The position numbers and the translations under genes were made by a program. A stretch of 48,171 nucleotides of DNA from Chloroflexota bacterium (lineage in GTDB: Bacteria > Chloroflexota > Anaerolineae > Aggregatilineales > UBA3940), in assembly GCA_010092775.1 (NCBI GenBank), contig JAADYZ010000089.1, positions 1-48,171 on the forward strand, written 5' to 3'. Positions 13,048-33,364 of this stretch are shown one piece after another. The notes below the pieces were generated by a model. It was not told where the DNA came from, searched no databases, and worked only from the letters and a program-made list of their open reading frames with translations. Positions within the stretch are counted from its first letter, which is position 1; the number at the start of each line of letters is the position of its first letter.

Positions 13048-13065
13048 AACAAACCACTCTCTCTT

Positions 13066-15848: not shown

Positions 15849-17043
15849 AGCTGTCTCCCTGATCAATCAGGTTGAGGGGCAGGCGAACGGTCATCGTGGT
15901 GCCCGTCCCGATTTCGCTGCTCGCGTTGATACTGCCTTGATGCATCTCAATGATCTTCTTGGTGATCGACAAGCCCAGGCCGCTGCCGCTACCCTGAGAC
16001 CTCCCTCGGACCAGCGGCTCAAAAATGCGGTGAGGTAGATACTCAGGGGGGATTCCGTCACCGTTGTCTACAAAGCGGATGATGTAGCCACTGGCGCCGC
16101 GATCGACTTCGATCCGCACGTGGCCCTCTGGTCCAGAATATTTCAGGCTGTTGTCAATGATATTGACGAAGGCGCGCACCAGCAGATCGCGGTCCGCTTC
16201 TAGAATCAGACTGCCCGATGGGGCCTCTAGTTCGATGCTCTTGCCGTGTTCCATCGCCTCTTCGTCGCGGGCGAACAGCGCCTCTTCCAACACATCGACC
16301 AGATCGAGGCGCTGCGGCTGAAGTGGGACGTAAGCCAGCCGAGCATCAAACAACATGCTATCGACCAAGCGCGCCAAACGCTGTGCCTCGCCCTCAATGG
16401 TGGAGGCGGACTTCCGCCAACCCGCCTCATCGACACTGGGAGATTGCTGCAAGTTCGAAGCATGAGCGATGATTGCAGCCAGGGGATTGCGCATGTCGTG
16501 TACAATTCGGTGGATGAAGTTCTTGTAGAAGCGGCGTTCTTCGCTGGCTCTGATAGGACGGCAAAGCAGCGTGAGCGTCTGGCCATCGGGCTGGGGAATC
16601 GCCTGGATAGCATAGCGTAGATTCTCGTTCACATCGATGGGCTGTAAGGTGACGCGTTGGTTGGCTTGGGCTCGTTCAACCAGATTCATGATGGCGCTGT
16701 TGGGGTGTCCATCGCTGAGCATGACATGCTCAGCGACCTGGTTGCTCCAGACGACGGCCCCTTTGGCATTTAGGACAGCTACGCCCTCGGTGAAATAGTG
16801 GGCAGCATGGATTAAGTCACCAGCGATGCGCGTGTTTGTATGTGGTTTAGGGCGAAGAGCGATGGCAAGCAGCAGCAAGATCAGCCCCGTGACTGCCCAA
16901 ATTAGAGCTGGGATTGTGGCAAAACGGATGCGCACCAGCGGGAGAACCTCATTTGGCGACAGGACCAATACCAAACCACCAGCCAGGCCCCAGACGCCCA
17001 TCAATGCTAGCCGCACAAACCACAAGGATCGCTGCTGCGTCAT
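15841..17043 (-). CDS. Sensor histidine kinase (two TM helices, sensor, HisKA and HATPase_c domains)
   Basis: H-box HDMRNPLAAI, N-box NIIDNSLKY, G1 DNGDGIP, G2 GSGLGLS. Confidence 0.9.
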   Translation of the reverse strand: MTQQRSLWFVRLALMGVWGLAGGLVLVLSPNEVLPLVRIRFATIPALIWAVTGLILLLLAIALRPKPHTNTRIAGDLIHAAHYFTEGVAVLNAKGAVVWSNQVAEHVMLSDGHPNSAIMNLVERAQANQRVTLQPIDVNENLRYAIQAIPQPDGQTLTLLCRPIRASEERRFYKNFIHRIVHDMRNPLAAIIAHASNLQQSPSVDEAGWRKSASTIEGEAQRLARLVDSMLFDARLAYVPLQPQRLDLVDVLEEALFARDEEAMEHGKSIELEAPSGSLILEADRDLLVRAFVNIIDNSLKYSGPEGHVRIEVDRGASGYIIRFVDNGDGIPPEYLPHRIFEPLVRGRSQGSGSGLGLSITKKIIEMHQGSINASSEIGTGTTMTVRLPLNLIDQGDSYG

Positions 17044-17762
17044 CAGATCACCAGCTTATAGCCAACACCATGCACCGTCTCGATCAACTCATTGCGCTCC
17101 AGCTTGAGTTTTCGGCGCAGCGCAGCGATATGGCGATCGACGGTGCGTGGATAGCCGACCCAACTGTAGTCCCAGACGTGGTCGAGGAGTTGCTCGCGTG
17201 TCCAATGTCGGTTGGGATGACGTGCCAGGAAGACCAGTAAGGCAAATTCAATCGGCGTCAGGTCGATTTGCTCGCCGCTGCGGCTGACACGGAAAAACTC
17301 CAGGTCAATTTCGATGTCGGGTGGGATCATTAATTGACTCACATGGTCACGCTTATCACGCTCTGACTCCTGCCGGATGTGCTGCACAGCGTTCAAGGTG
17401 GCGCGAATCTGACTGGCGAGCGCGTTATTATCCCAAGGCTTCGTGACAAAGGCGATTGCTCCCTGGCCCAAGCTCTCCACTTGCCATTCGGGATAAGAGG
17501 TCAGCATGATGACGGGCACAAACCGATCACGCGCGCGAATGTGGCGCAATATCTCCAGGCCGCTCATCGCGTTGGGATCACTTTCATCGAGTACAACATC
17601 CAATAACACCAGGTCAGGCTCGCGCTGAAGCAGCACCGTCAATGCGCTGCTGCCGCTGTCTGCCATGCTCACACTATAGCCCAAGCGTCCTAGAAAAGTG
17701 GACAGCGCTGAACGGATGGCTTCCTCGTCATCAACAATTAGGATGCGTTCGCGATTATCCAT
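17043..17762 (-). CDS. OmpR-family response regulator
   Basis: Receiver domain ILIVDDE...LLDVVL...KP and a C-terminal winged helix LTPIEFALLVFLARHPNRHWTREQLL...VDRHIAALRRKL. 1-nt overlap with the kinase gene. Confidence 0.9.
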   Translation of the reverse strand: MDNRERILIVDDEEAIRSALSTFLGRLGYSVSMADSGSSALTVLLQREPDLVLLDVVLDESDPNAMSGLEILRHIRARDRFVPVIMLTSYPEWQVESLGQGAIAFVTKPWDNNALASQIRATLNAVQHIRQESERDKRDHVSQLMIPPDIEIDLEFFRVSRSGEQIDLTPIEFALLVFLARHPNRHWTREQLLDHVWDYSWVGYPRTVDRHIAALRRKLKLERNELIETVHGVGYKLVI

Positions 17763-19023: not shown

Positions 19024-20820
19024 ATGCTGACATCCTCTGAACTTATTCTCATCGCTATTCTGCTGGGGCTGTTTGGTCTGCTATTCATCGCAAGATTAAA
19101 GATGGAACTGGTCGCGATTTTGGTCCTGTTGGCGCTCAGTTTCAGCGGATTGGTCACGCCGCAGCAAGCACTCTCTGGCTTTAGCAGTTCGGTCGTCATC
19201 ACCCTGATTGGGCTGTTTGTGATCACGCGCGGATTGGAAGATACCGGTGTGGTCCAGTGGATCGGTGGTCAACTCAATCGCTTGGGCAATGGGGCGGAAC
19301 TGCGGCTCATCCCACTTTTTATGCTGGCAGGGTCGACCTTGTCGCTGATCATGAACAATGTGGCGGCAGGTGCGATGCTGCTGCCAGCAGCCGTGCATGT
19401 CTCCAAATCCTCAGATGTACCCGTCTCACGGCTGTTGATGCCATTATCTTTTGGGACCCTGGTCGGTGGCATGGCTACCTATTTGACGACAGCCAACATC
19501 GTGATGAGTGAACTGCTTCTGAGTCGGGACCTTGACGGCCTGAACATGTTTGACTTCATGCCGACTGGCGGGTTGATTGTCTTGGCGACCGTGCTGTATA
19601 TGTCCTTAATTGGGCGGCGCCTGCTACCTGAACGTGACGCGCTGAGCGTGGCAACGATGCTGCCCGATCTTCAGCAGACCTATCAACTTGGTGAGCGTTT
19701 CTGGGAAGTGCCCATCACACCAGACTCCGAGCTGGCCGGTTTGTCGCTCAGAGAATCCAAGATCGGCGAGCGGTTGGGCTTGACCGTTGTGGCGATCTCA
19801 CGTGGGCGGCAGATCATATCAGCCCCTAGCTCCGACGAGCGCATTCAGACCGGTGATCGTCTACTGGTGATTGGTCGGCAGGAGCGCGTTGATCATCTTA
19901 GAGGGCAAGGGGCGCACTTGCTGCGCGACGCAGAACGAGAGCGTCTGTTGAATGATATGCCGGGTGAAACCGCCGAGATCGTCATCGCGCCGCGTTCCAA
20001 CGCAGTCGGCAAAACACTCTCTCAGTTGAAATTCCGCGATCAGTTTGGGCTGATTGTCGTGGCACTGTGGCGAGAAAACCGTGCCTACCGGACGGACGTA
20101 GGCAAACGTGTCCTTGAAGTAGGTGATGCGCTCTTGGTTATGGGCGAGGCAAATGATGTACAGGCCCTTGCCGAGAACCGGAACTACATCGTCTTATCAG
20201 AGAGTTATGCCTCGACATCGTTCCGGCTGGAAAAGGCACCTTTCGCCGCGTTGATCACAGCATTGGTGTTGGCGGTCGCCATCTTCGACTTGTTCTCGCT
20301 GCCATTGGTCATGCTGTCAGGGGCTGCGTTGATGGTCCTGGCAGGCTGCATTGAGATGGACGACTTCTATGAGGCCGTCGAGTGGCGGGTGATCTTCCTG
20401 ATCGCAGCGATGCTCCCACTCAGTGTGGCGATTAGCGAGACCGGTCTGGCTGACCGCGTTGGGATGGCAATGGTCAATCTGCTGGCGGATTCCAGCGGGT
20501 TGATTCTGGTGACGGGGATGATCCTGCTGACGATGGCCGTCGTTCAGATCATAGGTGGTCAGGTGACGGCCCTGCTGATCGGGCCGATTGCCATCAACGC
20601 AGCGCTGCAATCCCAAGTCGACCCCCAGGCGATGGCGGTTGCGGTTGCCATGACCTGCTCGATGGCCTTCTTAACGCCCATTGCGCATCCGGTCAACCTG
20701 CTGGTGATGGGGCCGGGTGGCTACCATTTTGGCGATTTCTCACGAGTTGGCGTGGGTATGACGCTCGTGACCATCGCCACCATGCTGTTGGGATTGATCT
20801 TATTCTGGGGCCTGCGCTAG
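19024..20820 (+). CDS. SLC13/DASS-family anion permease with two central TrkA-C (RCK_C) domains
   Basis: Hydrophobic N- and C-terminal halves flank two repeats of ...GLTVVAISRGRQII...GDRLLVIG / ...GLIVVALWRENRAY...GDALLVMG. Confidence 0.85.
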   Translation: MLTSSELILIAILLGLFGLLFIARLKMELVAILVLLALSFSGLVTPQQALSGFSSSVVITLIGLFVITRGLEDTGVVQWIGGQLNRLGNGAELRLIPLFMLAGSTLSLIMNNVAAGAMLLPAAVHVSKSSDVPVSRLLMPLSFGTLVGGMATYLTTANIVMSELLLSRDLDGLNMFDFMPTGGLIVLATVLYMSLIGRRLLPERDALSVATMLPDLQQTYQLGERFWEVPITPDSELAGLSLRESKIGERLGLTVVAISRGRQIISAPSSDERIQTGDRLLVIGRQERVDHLRGQGAHLLRDAERERLLNDMPGETAEIVIAPRSNAVGKTLSQLKFRDQFGLIVVALWRENRAYRTDVGKRVLEVGDALLVMGEANDVQALAENRNYIVLSESYASTSFRLEKAPFAALITALVLAVAIFDLFSLPLVMLSGAALMVLAGCIEMDDFYEAVEWRVIFLIAAMLPLSVAISETGLADRVGMAMVNLLADSSGLILVTGMILLTMAVVQIIGGQVTALLIGPIAINAALQSQVDPQAMAVAVAMTCSMAFLTPIAHPVNLLVMGPGGYHFGDFSRVGVGMTLVTIATMLLGLILFWGLR

Positions 20821-21458
20821 ATGGCTGCCAAATCGAGAGGTGGCTCGCGGCGGTTGAAATCGTAGGCGGCCGCAGCGAGGACCGCTGATATCATCAACAG
20901 AAATTCTAAGGGGAGGAGGACAGCCCCCAAGCTCAGCAGCAGATCGTTGAAGAAGGTGCCCAGCACCCATTGTAGGGGAATCCAACCGAAGTAAGCGATG
21001 AGCAGCCAGGGCCATAAATTGGCAAACGCGTTTAGCATGGGCGCAGGTAAGGTATCCATGCCTTCCAGTGCTGTATTGATTCGGGTGGCCGTCAGCCCAG
21101 CGATCAGCCCAATGACGCCGGAGAAGAATCCTCCGCCCACCAGCAGAAGGACAATCGCCAGCCCGGCGATGACAAGGCCTACCCTAGGCCGTTGAATGAA
21201 GCCCACCGCCAAGATCAAAATCAACTCCGCGACAATCACCGTTACTATGCCACTAATCAACAGATTAGGCAGCAGACTCAGGGCTGGCAGGCAACCGTGC
21301 CAGACCAATGCAGGCTGACAGGGTGGGCCAATCGCATAGATGAGCAGCCCTTCAGCGGCGACACTTCCCTGGCTCACTTCGAATGCACCATGAGCCGTTC
21401 CCAATAGAGCCGCATAGGTAGCCAAAAGGGTGGCGGTAGTACGGATAGCCTGGTTCAT
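20817..21458 (-). CDS. Integral membrane protein of unknown function
   Basis: 213 aa with about six hydrophobic helices. Its stop shares the palindrome CTAG with the convergent permease gene. Confidence 0.6.
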   Translation of the reverse strand: MNQAIRTTATLLATYAALLGTAHGAFEVSQGSVAAEGLLIYAIGPPCQPALVWHGCLPALSLLPNLLISGIVTVIVAELILILAVGFIQRPRVGLVIAGLAIVLLLVGGGFFSGVIGLIAGLTATRINTALEGMDTLPAPMLNAFANLWPWLLIAYFGWIPLQWVLGTFFNDLLLSLGAVLLPLEFLLMISAVLAAAAYDFNRREPPLDLAAI

Positions 21459-21523: not shown

Positions 21524-21560
21524 GTGATAAACGTCACTTTCGAGAGTGATAAACGTCACT
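21524..21560. promoter_or_regulatory. Two identical 15-bp operator-like boxes, GTGATAAACGTCACT, spaced 22 bp start to start
   Basis: Exact copies at 21524-21538 and 21546-21560. Each contains the inverted half-sites GTGA-N6-TCAC. They lie about 70-100 bp upstream of the arsR-like start. Confidence 0.45.
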
Positions 21561-21597
21561 GATGGGTGAGGATTAGGCCCGCTTATACTGATCATAG

Positions 21598-21615
21598 TAT
21601 TCGCATATCCGAATA
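21598..21615. promoter_or_regulatory. Palindrome TATTCG-catatc-CGAATA just upstream of the ArsR-family gene (candidate autoregulatory operator)
   Basis: Perfect 6-bp arms with an AT-rich centre, 15-24 nt before the candidate start codons. Confidence 0.4.
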
Positions 21616-21629
21616 GTTGGGCAGGTAAA

Positions 21630-21959
21630 TTGATCGTGATGATCCCTCAATTGGACGAGCTTAATCTTCTACACAGCAATATTTGTCAGGCTGTTGGTGA
21701 CCCCAAGCGCATCCAGATTCTATACGCTCTCTATGCACAACCTCAACACGTCTCGGCATTGGCGCGGGAACTCGACATGCCACAACCGACCGTGTCACGT
21801 CATCTGGCGCTGCTGCGCCAACGTGGGCTGGTGGTTGGCGAGCGAGATGGTGCGTCCGTAGTCTACAGCCTGACCGATACACGCATTATCGACGTGCTCG
21901 ATACGATGCGTGGCTTACTGCGCGACATTTTGGAACGTCATTCGAGCGTGATGGACTAG
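21630..21959 (+). CDS. ArsR/SmtB-family transcriptional regulator
   Basis: DPKRIQILYAL...HVSALARELDMPQPTVSRHLALLRQRGLV (wHTH). It has a single Cys (NICQAVGD). Start is ambiguous between TTG 21630, GTG 21636 and ATG 21639. Confidence 0.85.
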   Translation: MIVMIPQLDELNLLHSNICQAVGDPKRIQILYALYAQPQHVSALARELDMPQPTVSRHLALLRQRGLVVGERDGASVVYSLTDTRIIDVLDTMRGLLRDILERHSSVMD

Positions 21960-21986
21960 CTCGATTCAAAAAGAAATGCAGGCACG

Positions 21987-23411
21987 ATGAAGAACTTCAA
22001 GTTTATCTGGGCAATCGGCTCTGCGGTGACGGCTGCGATCATCGTCACGCCGATTGTGCTATTGATCTCGCCAGACCGCAACCAAGTGGTTGATCCTTGG
22101 CAGTATGTCGAAACACGCACCCCTGATACGGATCATTCAGCGCTGCTGCCTGGCCCCTACGAGACCGGCCAAGAGGTGACTGCCGCCTGTTTGGACTGTC
22201 ATCCTGATGCGGCGATTGATGTCTCTCACACCACCCAGTGGACTTGGCTGGCCGAGCCGGTCGAAGTGGAATGGCGCGATGAACTCGTTGAGACCGGGAA
22301 GGCCAATGTCCTCAACAATTTCTGTATTGGCATCCAATCCAATTGGACCGGCTGCACGCGCTGTCATGCCGGATATGGTTGGGAAGACGACAGCTTCGAC
22401 TTCAGCGCTGAAGAGAACGTCGACTGCCTGGTTTGCCATGATCAATCGGGGACTTATGCCAAAGGCAACGCGGGGCAGCCGGTCGAAGGTGTTGACCTGG
22501 CAATGGCAGCGCAGAGTGTGGGCACCCCGACACGTGCCAACTGTGGCTACTGCCACTTCAATGGCGGTGGAGGGAATGGCGTCAAACATGGTGACATGGA
22601 CGATTCGCTGCTGCACCCACCGGATGCTGTCGATGTCCATATGGGTGCCAACGACTTTCTATGCATCGACTGCCACACGACTGAGGATCATCTCATCAGT
22701 GGGCGTTCCATTTCCGTTAGCGTGGACGATGCGCATCAGATTGCTTGTGAAGACTGTCACGGCAGCAATACACATGACGACGACCGCATTTCCGCACACC
22801 TTGAATCGGTCGCCTGTGTAACCTGTCATGTTCCACTGGGCGCTCGGCGAGACCCCACCAAAATGCATTGGGATTGGTCAACAGCGGGGTTAGACATCGA
22901 AGAAGATGACCACGCTTACCTGAAGATCAAAGGCTCGTTCATTTATGAGAGCGATTTCGTCCCCGAGTATTTTTGGTACAACGGCACTGTGTCTTATCGC
23001 TATCTCATTGGTGACCCACTCGACCCCGATGGGGTAACGCAGATGAACCCACCCGCCGGTGACATCAATGATCCCACGGCGCAGATTTGGCCATTCAAGG
23101 TGCATGTGGCCACGCAGCCCTATGATACCGTTCACAACTACCTGCTTCAGCCGCAGACAGTCGGAGAAGACGGCTATTGGACGACCTTTGACTGGCTCGA
23201 CGCACTGACACGCGGCTCGGAAACAATCGGTCTGCCCTTTAGCGGCGAGTTTGGCTTCGCTGAAACTGAGATGTACTGGCCGCTGGCACACATGGTCGTG
23301 CCCGGCGAGCAAGCGCTTCAATGCACCGATTGTCACGGCGAGAACACACGCTTCGATTGGGAAGCACTCGGTTATCCGGGCGACCCAATGGTATGGGGAG
23401 GGCGTGACTAA
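21987..23411 (+). CDS. Octaheme c-type cytochrome, tetrathionate-reductase (OTR) family-like, membrane-anchored or secreted
   Basis: One N-terminal hydrophobic helix. Eight CxxCH motifs: CLDCH, CTRCH, CLVCH, CGYCH, CIDCH, CEDCH, CVTCH, CTDCH. Its size (474 aa) and the NNFCIG...CTRCHAGYGW context resemble OTR-type octahemes. Confidence 0.85.
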   Translation: MKNFKFIWAIGSAVTAAIIVTPIVLLISPDRNQVVDPWQYVETRTPDTDHSALLPGPYETGQEVTAACLDCHPDAAIDVSHTTQWTWLAEPVEVEWRDELVETGKANVLNNFCIGIQSNWTGCTRCHAGYGWEDDSFDFSAEENVDCLVCHDQSGTYAKGNAGQPVEGVDLAMAAQSVGTPTRANCGYCHFNGGGGNGVKHGDMDDSLLHPPDAVDVHMGANDFLCIDCHTTEDHLISGRSISVSVDDAHQIACEDCHGSNTHDDDRISAHLESVACVTCHVPLGARRDPTKMHWDWSTAGLDIEEDDHAYLKIKGSFIYESDFVPEYFWYNGTVSYRYLIGDPLDPDGVTQMNPPAGDINDPTAQIWPFKVHVATQPYDTVHNYLLQPQTVGEDGYWTTFDWLDALTRGSETIGLPFSGEFGFAETEMYWPLAHMVVPGEQALQCTDCHGENTRFDWEALGYPGDPMVWGGRD

Positions 23412-26176
23412 TGGGCCGCCTTATAGATCACATTCGTCATGTGATTGCGCGCAGCTCTCGGTTGCTGCGCTCTCCGTTGCTGCGCTCTCTGGTAGCTAGC
23501 GGTCTGACTGCCTTGCTGATTAGCCTGGCCTTGCTGGGCTGGAGTCAGGTATCTGCCCTGGGCGGTCCGCAAGAGAATTTGCCAGACGAAGCGCCCTTCC
23601 ATCCGACCTTTGCGCTGTTGGATGCGGATGGTGTGCATGTGTTGGAGAGTGGCAATCCCGTCTCAACGATGCAGACCTGTGGGTCTTGCCACGATGCTGG
23701 CTTTATCGCTGATCACAGCCATCACGTCGATCTGGGAATCAGCGCGTTGTACGATGAGCCAGGAGAAGAAGGGCGCCCTTGGGAGCTTGGATCAGGGACA
23801 TTCGGGCGCTGGGACCCCTTACTCTATCGTTATCTGACGCCAGAAGAGGCCGAGTTTGTCGATTTGACGACCCCTGAATGGTTGATGATCTATGGAACGC
23901 GCCATGTCGGTGGTGGTCCGGCGATGGTCAGCCGCGACGGCACGCTCCTCACCGACCTCACTCCCGATGCGGCTAACCCGGAGACCAGCATCGTTGATCC
24001 GGAAACAGGACAGCTAGTCGCGTGGGATTGGCAGGAGTCTGGTGTGACTGAGATGAACTGCTTCCTCTGCCACATGCCAAGTGCGAACAATGCCGCGCGC
24101 ATTGAGGCCTTGCAGGCTGGCCAGTTTGCCTGGGCGAATACGGCGACATTGCAGGACAGCGGCATCGTTGAGGCAGTGGATGGTGATTGGCAGTGGAATG
24201 CTGAGGCCTTTGGCCCGCAGGGTAATTTGTTGGCGCAGTTCGTCAACGTCCAGGACCCGACCGACGAGAACTGTGGCAACTGTCATGGTTTGGTGCATGT
24301 TGATGCGCAGACCCCGCTCGTCGTCGGCTCCTGTGAACCGGCAAACTACACAACCATCACGACTGGTCAGATCATTTCACCGCAGCGTCTCTCCAATACC
24401 GGCTTGAACCTAGAGGATAAGAACAGCTTAGGGCGGTCGTTCGATGTTCATGCAGAGCGTGTGGTTGGCTGTACAGACTGTCACTACTCCGCCAACAATC
24501 CAATCTACTTCCAGGAAGACGAGGCTTCACAGCCTGATCATTTGACCTTTGATCCGCGCCGCATCGACTTCAGTGAATATCTGGAGCGCCCCTTACACCA
24601 ATTCGCTGGGGGCGATGCACCGGGGCAAGCGCTGCGTGCGTGCGAGGACTGCCACTCTTTGGAGGCCACACACAATTGGCTGCCCTATAAAGAACAACAT
24701 GCTGAGGTGTTGAGCTGCGAATCATGCCATGTGCCATTGCTCTACGGTCCAGCCCGCGAATACACCGACTGGACCGTCTTGACCACCGATGGCAATCCGG
24801 CTTTCGCCTGCCGCGGCGTAGATGTCGAGGGCGAGACCTTCGTCGATGCTTTGATCCGAGGCTATCAACCGGTGCTGCTGCCACAAGAAAGTGAAGATGG
24901 CGGTGCCGAGTTGGCTCCTTACAATCTGGTGACCACCTGGTACTGGGTCCATGGTGAGCCGAGTCAACCCATTCCACTGCGCTATCTTCAGACGGTTTGG
25001 TTAGATGGGGACAACTACGCGACCGACGTTCTTGCCACTTTCGACCATGATGGTGACGATCTGCTCAGTGAAGCCGAGTTGGTCATCGACAGCGTGGACA
25101 AAGAAAGCCTGATCGCTGGAAAGCTGGCGACCCTTGGGCTGAGCGATCCACGCATTGTAGGCGATGTGCAGCCCTATGCCATCCATCACAATGTGACACA
25201 TGGCGAGTGGGCTACGCGCGACTGTGCTAGCTGCCATAGCGCCGAGTCTCTGTTGACCACGGCTATGCCCCTCTCTGATCGGATGCCGGGCGGCGTGCTG
25301 CCCAGCGTCTATCCGAATGATGGCGCACAGTTCACCGGACAGGTGATGGCTGACGCGGATGGGCAGTTGATCTATCAACCCATCACTGCAACTGAAGACA
25401 CCGATCTCTACGTGCTGGGCCATGAGAGCGTCGCCTGGGTGGACTGGTTCGGCATTCTCGCCTTCCTGGGTACCCTTGCAGGGGTGACCGTGCATGGCGG
25501 ACTGCGTTACTGGTCTGCCCGCCGCAGCGAACCAAGCGAAGCACACCTCCAAGAAGTCTACATGTACACGGTTTACGAACGGCTGTGGCATTGGCTGCAA
25601 ACCGCCACGATCTTCATCTTGCTGGGGACCGGTATCGTCATCCACAAGCCGGATATGTTTGGCATCCTGAGTTTCAGTTGGATGGTGCAGGTCCACAATA
25701 TTGTGGCTGCGATCCTGGTGATCAACGCGGCGCTGTCCGCCTTCTATCACTTTGCCAGCGGCGAGATACAGCAGTACCTGCCGCGACCGCGTGGGTTCTT
25801 CGATCAAGCCTTCCAGCAGGTGAAATTCTATGTGTGGGGTATCTTCCGCAACGAGCCTCACCCCTTCGAGAAATCGCCAACGCGGAAACTGAATCCGCTT
25901 CAACAGTTGACCTACTTGGCTATTCTGAACGTCCTGCTGCCCCTTCAAGTGATCACAGGTGCATTGATGTGGGGTATGCAGCAGTGGCCCTCAATTGCAA
26001 ACCAATTAGGTGGATTGCCTGTCCTTGCGCCACTGCACACGCTGGTGGCCTGGTTGTTCGCCTCGTTCATTGTGATGCACGTGTATCTCACCACGACCGG
26101 GCATCGCCCGCTCGCTGGTGTTCAATCGATGATTTTCGGCTGGGATGAACTTGAGACCCACGCCGCTACTGACTAA
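23411..26176 (+). CDS. Fusion protein of an extracytoplasmic heptaheme cytochrome c domain and a C-terminal four-helix cytochrome b (FdnI/HyaC/PhsC-type); CbcL-like quinol dehydrogenase
   Basis: Start overlaps the upstream stop (TAATG). N-terminal anchor helix. Seven CxxCH motifs: CGSCH, CFLCH, CGNCH, CTDCH, CEDCH, CESCH, CASCH. One TM at about nt 25436-25510. The cytochrome b module from about nt 25559 has conserved His in ERLWHW, VQVHN, APLHT and IVMHV. Confidence 0.85.
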   Translation: MGRLIDHIRHVIARSSRLLRSPLLRSLVASGLTALLISLALLGWSQVSALGGPQENLPDEAPFHPTFALLDADGVHVLESGNPVSTMQTCGSCHDAGFIADHSHHVDLGISALYDEPGEEGRPWELGSGTFGRWDPLLYRYLTPEEAEFVDLTTPEWLMIYGTRHVGGGPAMVSRDGTLLTDLTPDAANPETSIVDPETGQLVAWDWQESGVTEMNCFLCHMPSANNAARIEALQAGQFAWANTATLQDSGIVEAVDGDWQWNAEAFGPQGNLLAQFVNVQDPTDENCGNCHGLVHVDAQTPLVVGSCEPANYTTITTGQIISPQRLSNTGLNLEDKNSLGRSFDVHAERVVGCTDCHYSANNPIYFQEDEASQPDHLTFDPRRIDFSEYLERPLHQFAGGDAPGQALRACEDCHSLEATHNWLPYKEQHAEVLSCESCHVPLLYGPAREYTDWTVLTTDGNPAFACRGVDVEGETFVDALIRGYQPVLLPQESEDGGAELAPYNLVTTWYWVHGEPSQPIPLRYLQTVWLDGDNYATDVLATFDHDGDDLLSEAELVIDSVDKESLIAGKLATLGLSDPRIVGDVQPYAIHHNVTHGEWATRDCASCHSAESLLTTAMPLSDRMPGGVLPSVYPNDGAQFTGQVMADADGQLIYQPITATEDTDLYVLGHESVAWVDWFGILAFLGTLAGVTVHGGLRYWSARRSEPSEAHLQEVYMYTVYERLWHWLQTATIFILLGTGIVIHKPDMFGILSFSWMVQVHNIVAAILVINAALSAFYHFASGEIQQYLPRPRGFFDQAFQQVKFYVWGIFRNEPHPFEKSPTRKLNPLQQLTYLAILNVLLPLQVITGALMWGMQQWPSIANQLGGLPVLAPLHTLVAWLFASFIVMHVYLTTTGHRPLAGVQSMIFGWDELETHAATD
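23459..23488 (+). repeat. In-frame 15-bp tandem duplication inside the signal-anchor region
   Basis: cGgttgctgcgctct / cCgttgctgcgctct, encoding RLLRS-PLLRS. Confidence 0.8.
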
Positions 26177-26186
26177 GGAAAGGATC

Positions 26187-26771
26187 ATGGCGACTTATTC
26201 CCCTACACAAGATCAACCTAGCCCGCCTGCCCGCTGGCTGGAGAACCTGTTTGCCAAACGCGAAGCACGCGACTACATCAACCCCTACCTGGCCGGTATT
26301 CTACTCGGGCTGGTCCTCTTTGGAGCCTTCTTCGTGACGGGTAGTGGCCTCGGCGCGTCAGGTGGGCTCAATCGTCTGGTGGTCTTTGTCGAAGACTTGA
26401 TCATCCCGGCCCATGTCGATCGCACGCCTTATCTGATCACAATGGCGGGTGGTGATCGTAACCCGCTCGATAGCTGGATCGTCTTCTTAACTCTCGGCAC
26501 GATCGTTGGTGGCTTCGCTTCAGGATGGCTGAACGGGCGTGTCAAGCTCGAGACCAACAAGGGACCGAACATCACCCCTCAGACACGCTGGATGATGGCA
26601 TTCATCGGCGGCTCGGTGATGGGCTTTGGCGCCCGCTTGGCGCGTGGCTGCACATCTGGTCAAGCTCTATCTGGTGGCGCGGTCTTGTCGGTCGGAAGTT
26701 GGGCCTTTATGTTTGCCGTCTTCGGTGGCGGCTATGCGCTGGCGTACTTTGTGCGCAAGCTGTGGAACTAG
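26187..26771 (+). CDS. YeeE/YedE-family (sulfur transport, half-size) membrane protein
   Basis: ATG preceded by AAGGAAAGGA. Conserved GARLARGCTSGQALSGG motif. About four to five TM helices. The longer ORF start at 26145 overlaps the upstream gene and lacks an RBS. Confidence 0.8.
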   Translation: MATYSPTQDQPSPPARWLENLFAKREARDYINPYLAGILLGLVLFGAFFVTGSGLGASGGLNRLVVFVEDLIIPAHVDRTPYLITMAGGDRNPLDSWIVFLTLGTIVGGFASGWLNGRVKLETNKGPNITPQTRWMMAFIGGSVMGFGARLARGCTSGQALSGGAVLSVGSWAFMFAVFGGGYALAYFVRKLWN

Positions 26772-26780
26772 GAGGATCAC

Positions 26781-28016
26781 ATGGCACCGTTTCCCCTTCC
26801 ACTTACTGAACTTCTGGGCCATTGGGGCTCTTACATTGTCTATCTGCTGATTGGCTTCGCCTTTGGCGCTGTCCTTGAGATGGCGGGCTTTGGCAACTCC
26901 AAGAAGCTGGCTGCTCAGTTCTACTTCAAAGAGCAGACCGTGCTCAAGGTGATGTTCACTGCCATCATCGTTGCGATGGTGGGCGTCTTTCTCGCCTCGG
27001 CTCTTGGCCTGTTGGACTACAATTTGATCTGGGTCAACCCGACCTATTTGTGGCCCGGCATCGTTGGCGGCCTGCTGATGGGGGTGGGTTTCATTGTCGG
27101 GGGCTTCTGCCCTGGCACGTCGTTGGTCGCGGCGGCTACAGCCAAGCTAGATGGCATCTTCTTCGTGCTCGGCGTCTTCTTTGGCATCTTCCTCTTCGGT
27201 GAGACAGTGGGCCTGTTCGAAGGCTTCTTTCATTCATCGTACATGGGCCGCTTCACTCTGCCCGAGTTGTTCAACGCGCCAACCGGCATCATCGTGATTG
27301 GTGTGGTGTTCATGGCACTCTTCATGTTCTGGGGTGCCGAACAGCTCGAACGGATCGTAGGTGGTATGGACACGAAGAATGCCCCCAAGTGGCGCTTCGC
27401 TGCTGCGGGTGGCCTGGTCGCTACAGCCGTCTTGGTCTTTGTGATTGGCCAACCCACCGCTGAAGATCGCTGGGCGCGGGTTGCTGATGAACGCGAGCTA
27501 CAGCTTGCCGAGCGCGAAGTACAGATTCACCCCGGTGAGTTGTTGGAGGTTATTCATGATCCGGCTATCAACATCATCATGCTCGACGTGCGCGATGAGG
27601 TGGACTATAACTTGTTCCACATCACCGATGCGCAGCATGTTGGCCAAAATGAATTGGCCGAAATGGTCCCGGTCTTGCATCTTGAACCTACTAACACCGT
27701 CTTCGTGGTCATGAGCAATGATGAGGTCCGCGCAACAGAGGCCTGGCGCTTCTTGATCGCGGAAAGCGTGCCCAATGTCTATATTCTTGAGGGGGGCGTC
27801 AATCGGTGGATCGCAACCTTCGCGAACGAAGAGTTTCTGACGACGGTAGCTACCCCCACCCCAAGCGCAAATGATGCTCTCGCTTATAGTTTTGGAGCGG
27901 CCCTAGGTGCGCGTCATCCGGTAGCTTACCCTGATCCACATGTTTTTGAGCTGGAGTATGATAAGAAGATCGAGCTGGAGATCAAACGTGGCCCCACCAG
28001 CGGCGGCTGCGGATAG
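26781..28016 (+). CDS. YeeE/YedE-family half-transporter fused to a C-terminal rhodanese-homology domain
   Basis: GGAGGA RBS. GGFCPGTSLVAA motif. The C-terminal domain reads IMLDVRDEVDYNLFHITDAQHV...VFVVMSNDEVRATEA...YILEGGVNRW. Ser occupies the expected catalytic Cys position, and the protein ends in SGGCG. Confidence 0.8.
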   Translation: MAPFPLPLTELLGHWGSYIVYLLIGFAFGAVLEMAGFGNSKKLAAQFYFKEQTVLKVMFTAIIVAMVGVFLASALGLLDYNLIWVNPTYLWPGIVGGLLMGVGFIVGGFCPGTSLVAAATAKLDGIFFVLGVFFGIFLFGETVGLFEGFFHSSYMGRFTLPELFNAPTGIIVIGVVFMALFMFWGAEQLERIVGGMDTKNAPKWRFAAAGGLVATAVLVFVIGQPTAEDRWARVADERELQLAEREVQIHPGELLEVIHDPAINIIMLDVRDEVDYNLFHITDAQHVGQNELAEMVPVLHLEPTNTVFVVMSNDEVRATEAWRFLIAESVPNVYILEGGVNRWIATFANEEFLTTVATPTPSANDALAYSFGAALGARHPVAYPDPHVFELEYDKKIELEIKRGPTSGGCG

Positions 28017-28034
28017 AGCCGATCGATTTCTAGA

Positions 28035-28062
28035 GCGGCAGGCTGACAGCCTGTCGCTTTTT
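28035..28062 (+). terminator. Rho-independent terminator closing the cytochrome/YeeE operon
   Basis: GCGGCAGGC-tgaca-GCCTGTCGC (one G-U pair) followed by TTTTT. Confidence 0.7.
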
Positions 28063-28192: not shown

Positions 28193-30208
28193 ATGCAACG
28201 CACTGTTACTCTTATCTTGTTGGCGGTTGCTACATCCGTCCTTTTAACAGCTTGCGGCGCCGACCGCCGCTTAGGCAGTTTCCGTGACACTACCTCACCT
28301 GATGCGACTATTGCGGCCTATACTGAATTGGCCGAGTCCATCTTGAGCGACAATCCCAGCCCTGTGGAATATCGTATCGTTCAGGGTGCACCCACAGCCA
28401 CTCTGCGCCCTGGTAAGGTCCAGTTCTACGGTGGAGCGGTTGACGACCCCTGGATTCAACCCTATGTTGATGTGTTCAAGGGAGCCGTTGGAGGGTGGGA
28501 TACCTACCTGACGCTGGACCCCTCGGAAGAAAGGCCAGGGAGCGGGCAGGTAGACGCCTATGTGGGCAGTTACCGTACAGATCGTTTTGGGGAAGGCGAC
28601 CAACCAGGCGACCTATTCATTGTAGGCGACTTCGAAACGCCGTATTTTGCAGGCAAGACAAGCACTGATGACGTTGACCGAGATTTGGTCTACATCTACC
28701 ATTTCGAAGAACAGGGTTCAGTCATCCGTTTACATGGTAGCCCAGCTGACTACATCGTGGCTCCGGCCTTTGACCCTGACACCGAGTTCGATGGTACTGC
28801 CATTTTCTATACTGGAAGCGGGACGGATGACCTCATTGCTTGGGTCGGAGAGATGGACTCTGCTGACATGGATTTGACCGGTCCACATTTTGAGTACGAT
28901 TTCGCACCTGACCCGACTCCGATGTTGACGGGGTTTGATCAGTTGGGGAACGGTGGTACCCAGGTCTTTGGAGAGACCGCGATGGACGAAGCAGGCAACA
29001 TCTACCAGACCTTCCTCTCCAGTGGTCCTGCTTTTCCGGGTGCGCAAAGTGAAGGTTCCTTCTACATCGTGAAGTGGAACAATCAGGGTGAGCAGCAGTG
29101 GATACAGCGTTATGGCGTCACCCCGGATGCGCAAAATGCTGGCGAGATGCCTTTCAACATCGTTGCCAACACGGAGTATGTCTTCGTGAGCGGGCACACG
29201 AAAGGCGGATTTGGTGGCCCTGCCCCCATCCCCAACCATAACACGGACGCTTCCTACGCCTTTGTCGCGCAGGTCGACGCAGTATCGGGCGACTTGCTCA
29301 ATGTACGGCGCTTCACCAATCCAGGTTTCAACGGTACAGCTTGGAGCATCGGGATTGATGACAGCGGGGAGTATGTCTTTGTTGGTGGGGGTGAATCCGA
29401 AAATAACCAGTTTCCCTTGCCTCACACCTCGCCATTCATCGCCATGCTGCCGCAGGATGATCTGTCGGTGGCCTGGGAAGACATCATCACTGATGGCGGG
29501 AATCAGATCAGACCCCGTATCCGTACCCAGCAGTTGTCAAACGAGGCTATTGCGACGATTGCCTTTGCCAGACAGCCTGGTACAGACGGTGTGATCTATG
29601 TTTCTGGCTATGGGGCACAAGGGGATTTCCTGGGAGGAGTGCCACTGATCACCGACGCGTGGGTCGCCAAGTATGATATGGCAGGCAATCGGCTGTGGGC
29701 AACGGCTTTCCAAGCATCCGATGGCGATCAGTATCCTTGGGCAGTTGCTGCAGATGATGCTGGTAATGTCTACATCGTTGGCCAAACTAATGGCGCGATG
29801 GATGGTGCTGATTTCCAAGGTAATGGTGACGGATTCATCCGCAAGATGAGCCCCGATGGCGAGCATCTCTGGACGCGCCTGATTGGCACCGAACTCAGTG
29901 ATGACCTGCAAGATATTCGCATCTTTGAGGATAAGATTTTCGTCACGGGCAGTACGCAAGGCGATCTGGTAGGGACTAACCAAGGCATGACGGATGGGTT
30001 CATCGCTATGCTCGACTTGGATGGTAACGTACTTGGCCTCCACCAATTTGGCAGCGAGAAAGCTGACCACGCGCGCAGCCTCCATATCTTTGGCAATACC
30101 ATTTACGTCGGCGGCATGACAGAAGGCTCACTGGTTGCCCCTTATCAAGGCGGTGGCGGCTTTGATGTCTTCTTGGCCACCTTCAACCTGGACGTGCTAG
30201 AGCAGTAG
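28193..30208 (+). CDS. Secreted lipoprotein with SBBP-type beta-propeller repeats
   Basis: Lipobox LLTAC. Repeated D(A/G)(W/F)(V/I)xK(Y/M)xxxGxxxW segments: DAWVAKYDMAGNRLW, DGFIRKMSPDGEHLW, DGFIAMLDLDGNVL, DVFLATFNL. Confidence 0.7.
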   Translation: MQRTVTLILLAVATSVLLTACGADRRLGSFRDTTSPDATIAAYTELAESILSDNPSPVEYRIVQGAPTATLRPGKVQFYGGAVDDPWIQPYVDVFKGAVGGWDTYLTLDPSEERPGSGQVDAYVGSYRTDRFGEGDQPGDLFIVGDFETPYFAGKTSTDDVDRDLVYIYHFEEQGSVIRLHGSPADYIVAPAFDPDTEFDGTAIFYTGSGTDDLIAWVGEMDSADMDLTGPHFEYDFAPDPTPMLTGFDQLGNGGTQVFGETAMDEAGNIYQTFLSSGPAFPGAQSEGSFYIVKWNNQGEQQWIQRYGVTPDAQNAGEMPFNIVANTEYVFVSGHTKGGFGGPAPIPNHNTDASYAFVAQVDAVSGDLLNVRRFTNPGFNGTAWSIGIDDSGEYVFVGGGESENNQFPLPHTSPFIAMLPQDDLSVAWEDIITDGGNQIRPRIRTQQLSNEAIATIAFARQPGTDGVIYVSGYGAQGDFLGGVPLITDAWVAKYDMAGNRLWATAFQASDGDQYPWAVAADDAGNVYIVGQTNGAMDGADFQGNGDGFIRKMSPDGEHLWTRLIGTELSDDLQDIRIFEDKIFVTGSTQGDLVGTNQGMTDGFIAMLDLDGNVLGLHQFGSEKADHARSLHIFGNTIYVGGMTEGSLVAPYQGGGGFDVFLATFNLDVLEQ

Positions 30209-31460: not shown

Positions 31461-31484
31461 TCGCGCCAACAATCTGATAGATCA

Positions 31485-31811
31485 AAAGATGATGATCTGG
31501 AAGAGTAGATGTTAAGGCGGCATTCAGAGAGCCTTCGGTTGCTGCAAAGAGGGCATGTGCGCAAACATTGAATGGGCCAGGGAGTCGCAGAGGCGAAAGC
31601 CATCAGTAGCTTCTGCCGGAGACGCACCGTTATCAGAGCGCAGAATATGTAGAGATAATCTACGTATTTGCTGAGTGAAGCTGGCCATAACATCGTGCAT
31701 CACTGTGCGATTTTTCTGTTTATAGGCCGCTTAACCGGGGTGGCACCGCGGGTTTTCGATCAGAAGCTCGTCCCTTGCGTCAGAATGATCTGGCGCAGCG
31801 GACGAGTTTTT
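31485..31811 (+). promoter_or_regulatory. T-box riboswitch leader, Trp-specific (UGG specifier), with intrinsic terminator
   Basis: Stem I: CTGG/CCAG base and GATGTT/AACATT helix. Specifier loop: AGTA (31504-31507) opposite GAA-TGG-G (specifier 31573-31575). AGAGA bulge at 31526-31530. F-box CCGTTA at 31627-31632. T-box AACCGGGGTGGCACCGCGG at 31733-31751. Terminator CTCGTCC...GGACGAG plus TTTTT at 31767-31811. Confidence 0.8.
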
Positions 31812-31984
31812 GTGTTGTGGGAGGGGAAGAACCGACCAGGCAGCCAAGAAAAGAATCACCTCAACCCCGATGGCTCTTCAGGGCGATGCGCAGGTCCTGA
31901 GCCAACACGGTCGGGCCTGACAACGCAAATCATCGTTGACAGTTGGATTGGCGTCCGTCGATCCCATCCAGGAGGAGATTCATC

Positions 31985-33364
31985 ATGGCAAACCAAAAGA
32001 CTCGCAAGTACGTCCTTTCCGAAGAGCAGATGCCGAAGGCGTATTACAATATCGTCTCGGATCTACCGACTCCACCACCACCGGTGCTGCATCCCGGCAC
32101 GCACCAGCCTATCGGCCCAGATGATCTGGCGCCGCTCTTTCCGATGGCCTTGATTGCCCAGGAGGTGAGCACCGAGCGCGAGATCGCGATTCCGGAGCCG
32201 GTACGAGATGCCTATCGACTGTATCGTCCCTCGCCGCTCTATCGTGCGCGCTCACTGGAGAAGGCGCTCGATACCCCGGCCCGCATCTACTACAAATATG
32301 AAGGTGTCTCCCCGGCAGGCTCTCACAAGCCCAATACCGCCATTGCACAAGCTTTCTACAATCGCGAGGAAGGGATCACCAGGCTTAGCACCGAGACTGG
32401 GGCGGGCCAGTGGGGCTCTGCATTGGCGATGGCCTGCGCCTTCTTTGATATGGAGTGTGAGGTCTATATGGTGCGGATCTCCTATGAGCAGAAGCCCTAC
32501 CGGCGCGCCCTGATGGAGACCTACGGGGCAAGCGTATATGCCTCCCCCAGTGATCGGACGCAGGCTGGACGATCCATCCGTGAGCAAAATCCCGACTCAC
32601 TGGGTTCGCTAGGCATCGCGATTTCTGAGGCAGTTGAAGTCGCCGCGACAAATGACGATGTGAAGTACTCTTTGGGGTCTGTGCTGAACCATGTTCTGTT
32701 GCATCAGACCGTTATCGGGCAGGAGGCACTGACCCAATTCCAATTGGCCGACGACTATCCGGACATTGTAATTGCACCAACCGGTGGCGGCTCGAATTTT
32801 GGTGGCATCGCCTTCCCCTTCATTGGGCGCAAGCTGCGTGGCGAGCAGGATGTTCAGGTAATTGCAGTCGAACCGGCGGCCTGCCCCTCGCTGACCAAAG
32901 GCAGCTATACTTACGACTTTGGTGACACAGCCCAGATGACCCCGCTGGTCAAGATGCACACCTTGGGTCACACGTTTGTGCCACCTGGTATGCACGCGGG
33001 CGGCCTGCGCTATCATGGTATGGCCCCGCTGGTGTCTCATTTGTATGATCTGGGTCTGATCGAAGCGGTGGCGATCGAGCAAATGGATACCTTCGCTGCT
33101 GGCGTTACCTTTGCCCGCACCGAAGGCGTCGTGCCCGCGCCAGAAGCCACACATGGTGTCGCCGCAGCCATCAATGAGGCGATCAAATGCCGCGAGAGCG
33201 GTGAAGCCAAGACCATCTTGTTCAATCTTTGTGGGCATGGGCACTTTGATATGCTGGCCTACATGGATTACCATGCCGGTAAGCTGCAAAACTACCAGTA
33301 CCCTGAGGAAGAAATCGCGATGGCCCTGGCTGGGCTGCCGCCGATTAACGTCCCGACCAGCTAA
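31985..33364 (+). CDS. trpB2: TrpB2-type tryptophan synthase beta-chain-like PLP enzyme (stand-alone)
   Basis: ATG preceded by GGAGGAG. N-terminus [21 protein letters not shown] is typical of TrpB2. SHKPNTA holds the PLP lysine, and GGGSNFGG is present. No trpA is adjacent. Confidence 0.9.

Follow-up and report, generated by a model that had tools for sequence, protein, structure and literature searches.

The crystal structure of the octaheme tetrathionate reductase (OTR) of Shewanella oneidensis is about twenty years old, and the cellular role and electron donor of the enzyme are still unclear. In Shewanella it is thought to be fed by CymA via soluble cytochromes, and in vitro it reduces nitrite and hydroxylamine. 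Its catalytic heme has an unusual lysine ligand, Lys56, with a cysteine, Cys64, nearby. Here, we describe a block of five genes that contains an OTR-family member and lies in a stretch of 48,171 nucleotides from a Chloroflexota bacterium (GenBank assembly GCA_010092775.1, contig JAADYZ010000089.1, positions 1 to 48,171 of the forward strand; hereafter, the window). In this block, and in most of the related loci that we compared, the octaheme gene stands together with a heptaheme domain and a diheme cytochrome b, with both halves of a YeeE-type channel and with a rhodanese-fold domain that lacks the catalytic cysteine and ends in a GGCG arm (Rhd-GGCG). The individual families are known; what is apparently new is a respiratory OTR system that would have a quinol dehydrogenase of its own, together with a unit of carrier and channel.

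In YeeE, by its crystal structure, the N-terminus is outside and the N-terminal half begins and ends outside, after which helix 7 brings the chain back inside, where the C-terminal half begins and ends (PMC7449682). Short PmpA and PmpB proteins are complementary YeeE halves with one conserved cysteine loop each (PMC11582611), and uptake of zero-valent sulfur has been reported for short YeeE proteins of the PmpAB-like kind (reference 22 of PMC11582611). A hand-over from the periplasmic carrier SoxYZ to the YeeE-like importer SoxT1A has been proposed for sulfur oxidisers, and YedE-like proteins transport selenium in Methanococcus (PMC11582611). The cysteine of the SoxY GGCGG motif carries the sulfur intermediates of the Sox pathway (PMC6067878, PMC5336275). 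Genome papers mention an 'Otr and cytochrome b561' cluster in an Ignavibacteria genome and a soxY gene beside otr in clam symbionts.

A previous reading of the window from its letters alone (the sequence-only reading) had marked the block as a candidate module for sulfur-oxyanion respiration and uptake, and knew of no characterised operon with this combination of genes. We found none either: the searchable part of the literature, which covers few subscription journals, holds no description of a block that joins OTR, a quinol module, a split YeeE and Rhd-GGCG, and none of an exported Cys-less rhodanese with a GGCG tail. In public annotations the homologues of gene 5 appear as 'YeeE/YedE family protein' or 'rhodanese-related sulfurtransferase' and those of gene 3 as 'thiosulfate reductase cytochrome b subunit'.

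Results

A conserved block of genes

The block consists of five genes on the plus strand (Table 1), separated by a spacer of 27 nt, a 1-nt TAATG overlap and spacers of 10 nt and 9 nt, with good ribosome-binding sites upstream of genes 4 and 5. Positions are given in the numbering of the whole window, genes 2-5 are abbreviated g2-g5, and bit scores are stated against the cut-off of the model. The ArsR gene was called from a TTG codon at 21630, although GTG at 21636 or ATG at 21639 is the likelier start. The gene spacing, the eight and seven CxxCH motifs of g2 and g3, the RGCTSG loop of g4 (C155) and the GFCPGTS loop of g5 (C110), operator-like repeats upstream and an intrinsic terminator had all been described in the sequence-only reading, the observation of which holds in each detail checked. 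The repeats are two exact copies of GTGATAAACGTCAC, the first at 21524, and the terminator is a 13-pair hairpin with a T-rich tail. Its family assignments were likewise borne out by profile searches for the OTR, Ni_hydr_CYTB, Sulf_transp and Rhodanese models, with the scores given below.

Table 1 Features of the block and its borders, in window numbering
Feature	Position	Strand	Details
Distal palindromes	21524-37, 21546-59	+	two exact copies of GTGATAAACGTCAC, 22 bp apart; resemble CRP/FNR site TGTGA-N6-TCACA
-10-like box TATACT	21584-21589	+	without good -35 element; read from sequence
Proximal palindrome	21597-21615	+	GTATTCG-CATATC-CGAATA, at predicted transcription start
Gene 1, ArsR	21630-21959	+	106-109 residues
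Gene 2, octaheme OTR	21987-23411	+	474 residues
Gene 3, heptaheme c / cytochrome b fusion	23411-26176	+	921 residues
Gene 3 product, parts by residue			signal anchor 23-41; heptaheme c domain ~42-673, extracytoplasmic; linker transmembrane helix 674-692; four-helix cytochrome b ~717-900
Gene 4, YeeE/YedE C-terminal half, PmpA-like	26187-26771	+	194 residues; predicted topology N-in, C-in
Gene 5, YeeE N-terminal half + rhodanese	26781-28016	+	
Gene 5, YeeE/YedE N-terminal half, PmpB-like	26781-27455	+	two extra transmembrane helices, residues 170-188 and 206-224; predicted N-out
Gene 5, rhodanese-fold domain	27531-27815	+	residues 251-345; conserved MSNDE loop, no catalytic Cys
Gene 5, flexible C-terminal tail	27984-28013	+	KRGPTSGGCG; GGCG end nearly invariant
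Intrinsic terminator-like hairpin	28032-28060	+	3' border of block; 13-pair stem (7 GC pairs), loop of 3, TTGATTT

The best matches of all genes of the block are proteins that are 60-71% identical and come from metagenome-assembled genomes (MAGs) of Chloroflexota, class Anaerolineae, and when g2 and g3 were searched against proteins, the 120 matches listed were all from close relatives within Chloroflexota. The wider diversity comes from a genome scan, with one genome per species and a mixed OTR alignment that included the Shewanella enzyme, in which at least 585 stretches encode a relative. We compared the best 80 of these by similarity to the query (49-68% identity), searching their open reading frames (ORFs) with the window proteins; 59 have at least 4.8 kb downstream of the OTR gene and are informative. 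The heptaheme domain, the cytochrome b, both YeeE halves and the rhodanese follow in the same order in 54 of the 59 loci, and both YeeE halves and the rhodanese domain accompany OTR in 57. These loci belong to Chloroflexota, Planctomycetota, Actinomycetota, Gemmatimonadota, Pseudomonadota, Myxococcota, Bacteroidota, Acidobacteriota, Verrucomicrobiota and other phyla, and their titles name, besides Chloroflexota and Gemmatimonadota, Pirellulaceae, Acidimicrobiia, Lysobacterales, other Gammaproteobacteria, Myxococcia, Polyangiaceae, Cytophagia, Thermoanaerobaculaceae, Kiritimatiellae, Opitutaceae, Bdellovibrionales, KSB1, Chlorobiota and Ignavibacteria. The genes that flank the module vary from locus to locus. 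The synteny in related genomes on which the sequence-only reading had staked its module is thus present across many phyla.

Gene fusions and replacements bear on how the products work together. In two loci (L061 and L075) a single protein with 15 hemes combines OTR and the heptaheme domain, and in a third (L077) OTR, the heme domain and the cytochrome b share a single ORF. Three loci, from Chlorobiota, Opitutaceae and Ignavibacteria, have no gene 3 and encode a 9-heme protein after the YeeE genes (L082, 11000-12955; L084, 10908-12047; L085, 6775-8685). Those of L082 and L085 have 5-7 hydrophobic segments, and only that of L085 matches Ni_hydr_CYTB, weakly; that of L084 is cut off by the end of the contig. 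They look like a non-orthologous replacement of the electron-input module, which would therefore be swappable while the core of OTR, YeeE and rhodanese stays. The fusions of the octaheme, heptaheme and, once, cytochrome b genes, and the replacement of gene 3 with the core kept, speak for one physical complex of the products.

This pattern bears on a simpler account, in which the OTR is a nitrite or hydroxylamine reductase for detoxification or ammonification and the YeeE and rhodanese genes are functionally unrelated neighbours. The reduction of both nitrogen compounds by OTR in vitro speaks for it, but OTR adjoins both YeeE halves and Rhd-GGCG in 57 of 59 loci across phyla, and the association outlasts changes of gene order and of the quinol module. 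Because of this conservation we regard unrelated neighbours as scarcely credible.

Several loci depart from the common layout in other ways. A second, longer OTR-like paralogue lies beside the module in L003 (15893-20266), L030 (4581-6924), L018 (3116-5329) and L065 (5232-7553, minus strand). The longer paralogues are accompanied by NrfC-like iron-sulfur (FeS) and NrfD genes in L003, by a small cytochrome b alone in L030, and by no YeeE genes; the association with YeeE thus belongs to one subfamily of OTR only. In an Anaerolineales MAG (L013, 9419-9685) the OTR gene is followed only by the last ~89 residues of the Rhd-GGCG tail, which looks as if a deletion had taken out genes 3 and 4 and the greater part of gene 5. 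Genes for DsrE-like and DsrC-like proteins and a pyridine-nucleotide-disulfide oxidoreductase lie directly downstream on the opposite strand in L001 (16121-18975, minus strand) and in none of the other neighbourhoods read. A complete module, in which the heptaheme domain and the cytochrome b are encoded separately, is found on a contig labelled 'archaeon isolate SMAG_U14205' (L067), which could reflect mis-binning or transfer into archaea. Splits of g5 or g3 in L005, L020, L040, L057, L063 and L081 have overlapping frames that look like frameshifts or assembly errors, and we did not accept them as architectures.

The two multiheme cytochromes

Gene 2 encodes a true OTR-family octaheme cytochrome by homology. 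It scores 557.9 bits on TIGR04315, the model of the tetrathionate reductase family octaheme cytochrome c (cut-off 375), and matches Shewanella oneidensis OTR (PDB 1SP3) over residues 49-468 with 52% identity and an E value of 4e-145. The first cysteine of each of its eight CxxCH motifs is kept in 82-83 of 83 homologues, and K105 and C113, which correspond to Lys56 and Cys64 of OTR, are invariant in all 83. A single N-terminal hydrophobic segment (residues 9-27) without an obvious cleavage site suggests a membrane-anchored, outward-facing enzyme with an extracytoplasmic catalytic domain.

Gene 3, with its seven CxxCH motifs, is by profile and fold comparison an OTR-related heptaheme domain fused to a PhsC/FdnI-type diheme cytochrome b. 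The b domain matches Ni_hydr_CYTB (79.8 bits against 30.1), and its best model is PhsC (NF011582) at 134.9 bits; the hydrogenase-type model reaches 66 bits and the FdnI model 34. It stays below the PhsC equivalog cut-off (204), and the block has no genes for molybdopterin or FeS subunits. Four histidines (His727, 762, 876 and 890) are conserved in 66-67 of 67 homologues, with the FdnI-like spacing of 14 residues in the last helix. A search of PDB sequences with gene 3 gave no match, and its kinship to OTR appears only through fold search and profile-profile comparison. In the latter (hhalign, probability 95%) hemes 3-6 align with hemes 4-7 of OTR, and a Foldseek search with the gene 3 model places OTR (1sp3) second, after FdnI (1kqf_C), with HyaC (4gd3_A) also among the top matches; the assignment of the heptaheme domain follows from these two results. 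That the b domain fits best to PhsC, which is of the quinol-oxidising type, is in line with a route from quinol to an extracytoplasmic reductase.

The outer domains of both cytochromes are strongly acidic, with 20 lysines plus arginines (K+R) against 74 aspartates plus glutamates (D+E) in the extracytoplasmic heme domain of g2, and 24 against 97 in that of g3. This may reflect a saline habitat, or the electrostatics of heme propionates and partners.

A split YeeE channel

Genes 4 and 5 are, by homology, the C-terminal and N-terminal halves of a YeeE-type channel with a PmpAB-like split. Both match Sulf_transp (cut-off 27), g4 with 85.4 bits over positions 167-309 of the 310 of the profile and g5 with 52.2 bits over positions 9-189. 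The RGCTSG loop of g4, in which C155 corresponds to Cys293 of StYeeE, is invariant in 66 of 66 orthologues, and the GGFCPGTS loop of g5, in which C110 corresponds to Cys91, in 62 of 62. The equivalog models of the TsuA/YeeE thiosulfate importers were not reached (36.6 and 18.4 bits against 400, and 19.2 against 645), and no gene for a YeeD/TusA-like (TsuB) partner is found in the block.

A rhodanese fold with a GGCG arm

The last domain of g5 is a rhodanese by fold. It scores 47.7 bits on the Pfam model (cut-off 22.2), its AlphaFold2 model has a predicted local distance difference test (pLDDT) score of 86-93, and Foldseek finds many rhodanese folds with it, Sud (1QXN) among them. None of 60 orthologues has a catalytic cysteine at the columns of the active-site loop (V-M-S-N-D-E), and 33 of the 60 lack any cysteine in residues 246-400. 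We therefore rejected a catalytic rhodanese sulfurtransferase, so that of the rhodanese named in the sequence-only reading the fold stands and the usual sulfurtransferase activity does not.

The g5 protein has two cysteines only, C110 in the channel loop and C410, its penultimate residue. The latter lies in a tail that the sequence-only reading had passed over, with the consensus K-R-x-P-x-S-G-G-C-G in the g5 orthologues; its last seven residues (405-411) have pLDDT values below 50 and are predicted to be disordered. We searched the g5 domain against 1.8 billion cluster representatives and inspected the best 150 of 514 matches at E <= 1e-3. A terminal cysteine flanked by glycines, mostly as GGCG, is present in nearly all g5 orthologues of the related loci and in 115 of these 150 proteins. 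The likely reactive group is C410 of this arm. No SoxY family match was obtained for g5 at E <= 0.01, and the block holds no SoxZ-like gene.

Among the 150 best representatives, 49 are standalone proteins of ~200-225 residues with the Cys tail. Most have a short N-terminus, usually with K/R, then a hydrophobic stretch and often the same GQPT junction, and 40 of 50 tail-bearing proteins of ~200-225 residues pass a threshold of N-terminal hydropathy; in sequence this N-terminus resembles an export signal or a type II anchor. We found no name for these standalone Cys-less rhodanese-GGCG proteins (P0372, P0381, P0393-P0395 and about 45 others).

The sidedness of the arm can be approached from the membrane segments. 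The N-terminal half of g5 contributes four helices, the fifth is the equivalent of helix 7 and the sixth (206-224) is strongly hydrophobic. Over 60 orthologues with six hydrophobic segments, the mean K+R of successive loops is 0.3, 3.3, 0.2, 1.1, 1.1 and 4.6, and from this alternation we read the protein as N-out, with the rhodanese domain after helix 6 outside. Taken together, the homology to StYeeE, the K+R counts and the standalone homologues make it fairly probable that Rhd-GGCG lies outside the cell. A cytoplasmic, YeeD-like role of the domain is less likely; the K/R-rich segment after the sixth transmembrane helix speaks for it, and that helix itself and the signal-anchored standalone forms speak against it. 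Cytoplasmic handling of sulfur by the rhodanese is accordingly at odds with a domain predicted to be outside the membrane.

A rhodanese fold akin to Sud fits respiration of polysulfide or elemental sulfur, in which the exported rhodanese arm would take up sulfane sulfur as Sud does, OTR would reduce the persulfide to sulfide and the channel would move zero-valent sulfur. The import of zero-valent sulfur reported for PmpAB-like short YeeE proteins agrees with this scheme, as do Dethiobacter clusters proposed for sulfur or thiosulfate reduction, in which rhodanese genes adjoin octaheme genes. However, Sud uses the cysteine of the rhodanese loop that is missing here, and with sulfide as the product a sulfur-import channel is not obviously needed. 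We know of no activity of OTR on polysulfide, which also tells against the scheme, and we consider it decidedly unlikely.

The arm fits, too, the same complex run in reverse. OTR would then oxidise thiosulfate or sulfide/polysulfide outside and load it onto the cysteine of the GGCG end, in the manner of SoxXA and SoxY; electrons would pass through the heptaheme domain and the cytochrome b to quinone, and the carrier sulfur would be imported by YeeE and oxidised or assimilated in the cytoplasm. A C-terminal GGCG arm is the hallmark of SoxY, a carrier of an oxidative pathway, the proposed SoxYZ-SoxT1A import route belongs to sulfur oxidisers, and the best Foldseek matches of the b domain, FdnI and then HyaC, both take electrons from outside and reduce quinone. 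One related locus, L001 as described above, has adjoining DsrE and DsrC genes, but the neighbourhoods read show no conserved Sox, Dsr or sHdr genes next to the block. Menaquinone is the expected quinone of Anaerolineae, and the tetrathionate/thiosulfate couple, at about +0.2 V, is far too positive for its reduction. The b domain scores best on PhsC, a quinol oxidiser, and OTR is described as a reductase. On balance, we hold the reverse direction, the strongest of the alternatives, to be unlikely; the reductive direction is preferred because the b domain is PhsC-like, because OTR is known to act as a reductase and because of the redox potentials.

The regulatory region

The pattern GTGA-N6-TCAC of the distal palindromes has four matches in the window, compared with 0.95 expected. 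Of 46 related loci, at least 20 have it ~100 bp 5' of the ArsR gene, many of them as two copies ~22 bp apart, with the CRP-like consensus TGTGAC-N4-GTCACA. Because of this recurrence at a similar distance we do not attribute the distal repeats to chance; they are candidate activator sites, centred ~43 and ~65 bp 5' of the predicted transcription start, for a putative binding protein. TATACT or TATAAT-like boxes stand at the same place in related loci, and the -10 assignment is tentative, as the box was not called by a consensus promoter scan.

The proximal palindrome, a further addition to the sequence-only reading, is unique in the window in the form TATTCG-N6-CGAATA (21598-21615; one match, compared with 0.02 expected). 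A version written (T)GTATTCG-N4-6-CGAATACA, directly 3' of the TATACT-like box, is conserved across the comparison of upstream regions, and the looser pattern ATTC(G/A)-N(4-10)-(C/T)GAAT occurs within 200 bp 5' of the ArsR gene in about half of the 46 related loci, mostly 20-55 bp 5'. By its geometry, it is a candidate ArsR operator.

The regulator is an ArsR/SmtB-family winged helix (NF033788, 79.9 bits against 55; HTH_5, 54.6 against 22). It lies directly 5' of the block in 35 of the 54 complete clusters and is its least constant part. In Chloroflexota-type orthologues, which make up most of the 46 aligned, a single cysteine is conserved; it belongs to the motif LHxxIC, which precedes the DPxR helix, and the C-terminal helix has no conserved cysteine. 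The BigR/PigS-type regulator of the earlier interpretation has to be given up: with 37.6 bits against 155 on the BigR model, and a single conserved cysteine instead of a pair, we rejected a persulfide sensor of the BigR/SqrR/PigS type. The TsoR model gave a near-match of 64.6 bits, below its cut-off of 115.

A generic ArsR/SmtB metalloregulator would suit a selenium or tellurium system, in which selenite or tellurite is reduced outside, the arm binds the chalcogen, a YedE-like channel imports it and a metalloid-responsive ArsR controls the genes. In keeping with such a system, g4 scores equally (36.6 bits) on the selenium YedE/FdhT model and on TsuA, gene 2 has weak matches to the ExtM/N/O cytochromes of selenite/tellurite operons, and YedE-like proteins are known selenium transporters in Methanococcus. 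These matches are far under the family cut-offs, however, and no selD, selA or YedF was found near the block in the window or among the called genes of the neighbourhoods read. The alignment of the ArsR protein also shows none of the known metal or metalloid sites, with no CxC motif and an arginine in place of the alpha-5 histidine. We give this reading a small chance.

Other features of the window

Just 5' of the block, positions 19024-20820 (plus strand) encode an anion transporter of the CitMHS/DASS type with two TrkA_C domains, and convergent with it, with a 4-nt overlap, lies a gene for a 213-residue multi-pass membrane protein without a family match (20817-21458, minus strand). Neither is conserved beside the module elsewhere. 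After the terminator and outside the conserved block, 28193-30208 (plus strand) encodes a 671-residue protein with a lipoprotein-like N-terminus and SBBP beta-propeller repeats, which scores 104 bits on a LipL53-family model, far below the cut-off of 400. Further downstream, a T-box leader (31483-31778, plus strand; Rfam RF00230, gathering score 93, reached with 109 bits) lies upstream of the gene for a TrpB-like enzyme dependent on pyridoxal phosphate (31943-33364; NF009057, 737 bits), and is presumably a tryptophan-tRNA-sensing switch for this TrpB2-type gene. A widespread DUF1800/DUF1501 gene pair (12037-14535, minus strand) adjoins a two-component system (15841-17762).

Proposed function

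The reading that we favour, from homology and gene context, is that the module is a membrane-bound, quinol-fed extracytoplasmic reductase of sulfur species with S-S bonds, coupled to a sulfur channel; we put it forward tentatively, at somewhat less than an even chance. Menaquinol would be oxidised at the diheme cytochrome b of gene 3, and the electrons would cross the membrane through the two b hemes and pass along the seven c hemes of gene 3 and the eight hemes of OTR to the Lys-ligated catalytic heme. There, an S-S-bonded species such as tetrathionate or another polythionate would be cleaved reductively. The substrate might be free, or the GGCG cysteine might hold it as a thiosulfonate or persulfide adduct; the reaction of thiols with tetrathionate, which yields an S-thiosulfonate, is a ready one. 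The arm, on its non-catalytic rhodanese fold anchored at the outer face of the channel subunit, would capture the substrate or relay the product, and thiosulfate or sulfane sulfur would be released at the mouth of the split YeeE/PmpAB-type channel and pass into the cell. ArsR would probably repress from the proximal palindrome, and an activator would probably act on the two CRP-like distal palindromes. A more specific version, in which the physiological substrate of this OTR subfamily is not free tetrathionate but a sulfur adduct on a membrane-tethered, SoxY-like GGCG arm, with the YeeE-type channel importing sulfur, seems to us rather doubtful, albeit conceivable.

Several points weigh against the favoured reading. 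We infer the direction of electron flow, the substrate, the role and location of the arm, the direction of transport and the regulator sites, and of these the substrate and the direction are where it is exposed: diheme cytochromes b of the FdnI/HyaC type more often reduce quinone with electrons of an outside donor, the pathways from which SoxY-type arms are known are oxidative, and the in vitro substrates of OTR include nitrite and hydroxylamine. The segment after the sixth transmembrane helix of g5 is rich in K/R (mean 3.75 in 21 residues) and also in D/E, which weakens the positive-inside argument for an outer arm. The AlphaFold2 models of g5 and g3 have mean pLDDT values of 70 and 69 with poor membrane parts, and the YeeE structure was not recovered by Foldseek from the g5 model. 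Finally, the association is shown for this OTR subfamily only, as represented by the best 80 of at least 585 stretches. The interpretation given in the sequence-only reading is in sum partly supported, being correct as to the architecture and in positing a conserved module, and wrong or incomplete about the rhodanese, the type of regulator and the handling of sulfur.

The association of this OTR subfamily with a YeeE channel and an arm points to sulfur rather than nitrogen chemistry, and gene 3 is its likely electron donor. It bears on the reading of metagenomic 'otr' matches and on the cryptic cycling of tetrathionate and thiosulfate in sediments and sludge, where Anaerolineae are abundant. 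The Cys-less rhodanese with a GGCG end appears to be an undescribed exported family, with 514 representative clusters at E <= 1e-3. If the substrate were indeed bound to the arm, a Cys-less rhodanese fold with a C-terminal arm would be a new type of carrier, OTR would gain a cellular role, and a quinol-fed multiheme enzyme processing arm-bound species would amount to a protein-bound extracytoplasmic pathway of sulfur redox chemistry. Cys410 of the arm, Cys113 of the OTR and the channel cysteines are concrete targets.

Comparison with known systems

The closest described enzyme is S. oneidensis OTR (SO_4144, 1SP3), of which gene 2 is a full-length homologue with the same eight heme sites, the lysine ligand and the nearby cysteine. 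Whereas the Shewanella form is soluble and periplasmic, the gene 2 product is predicted to be anchored in the membrane, and the block would supply it with a partner that oxidises quinol and with a channel and a carrier reserved for it.

The b domain of gene 3 shares four helices, four conserved histidines and the 14-residue spacing in the last helix with PhsC, FdnI and HyaC. It differs from them in being fused, via an extra transmembrane helix, to a large heptaheme c domain, in having no molybdopterin or FeS partner and in falling below the PhsC equivalog cut-off. With CbcL of Geobacter it has in common the design of a quinol-oxidising b membrane domain joined to a multiheme c domain in the periplasm. 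In CbcL the b domain is N-terminal and the hemes number nine, whereas in gene 3 the c domain comes first, carries seven hemes and is related to OTR; the two are likened by architecture alone, and CbcL serves as an analogy only. The 9-heme proteins that take the place of gene 3 in L082 and L085 may be nearer to CbcL than gene 3 is.

Compared with full-length TsuA (YeeE), g4 is the C-terminal half with a Cys293-type loop and g5 the N-terminal half with a Cys91-type loop, a split that PmpA/PmpB share. Unlike these, the g5 half adds two transmembrane helices and a predicted exported rhodanese-GGCG domain, the block has no YeeD/TsuB partner, and g4 and g5 remain far under the TsuA and YedE equivalog cut-offs. 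At its head, the block resembles the BigR/SqrR/PigS systems in that an ArsR-family gene leads an operon with short YeeE-type genes, but the conserved cysteine of the ArsR protein is single and located elsewhere than Cys42/Cys108, the sensing pair of BigR.

The likeness to SoxY lies in the glycine-flanked cysteine at the extreme C-terminus, on a flexible tail of a protein that is extracytoplasmic (predicted in the case of g5), and, as with SoxYZ and SoxT1A, in a GGCG arm that is encoded beside a YeeE-type membrane protein. In contrast to SoxY, the arm here sits on a membrane-tethered rhodanese fold, without the SoxY fold or SoxZ, and goes with a multiheme reductase instead of SoxXA, SoxB and SoxCD.

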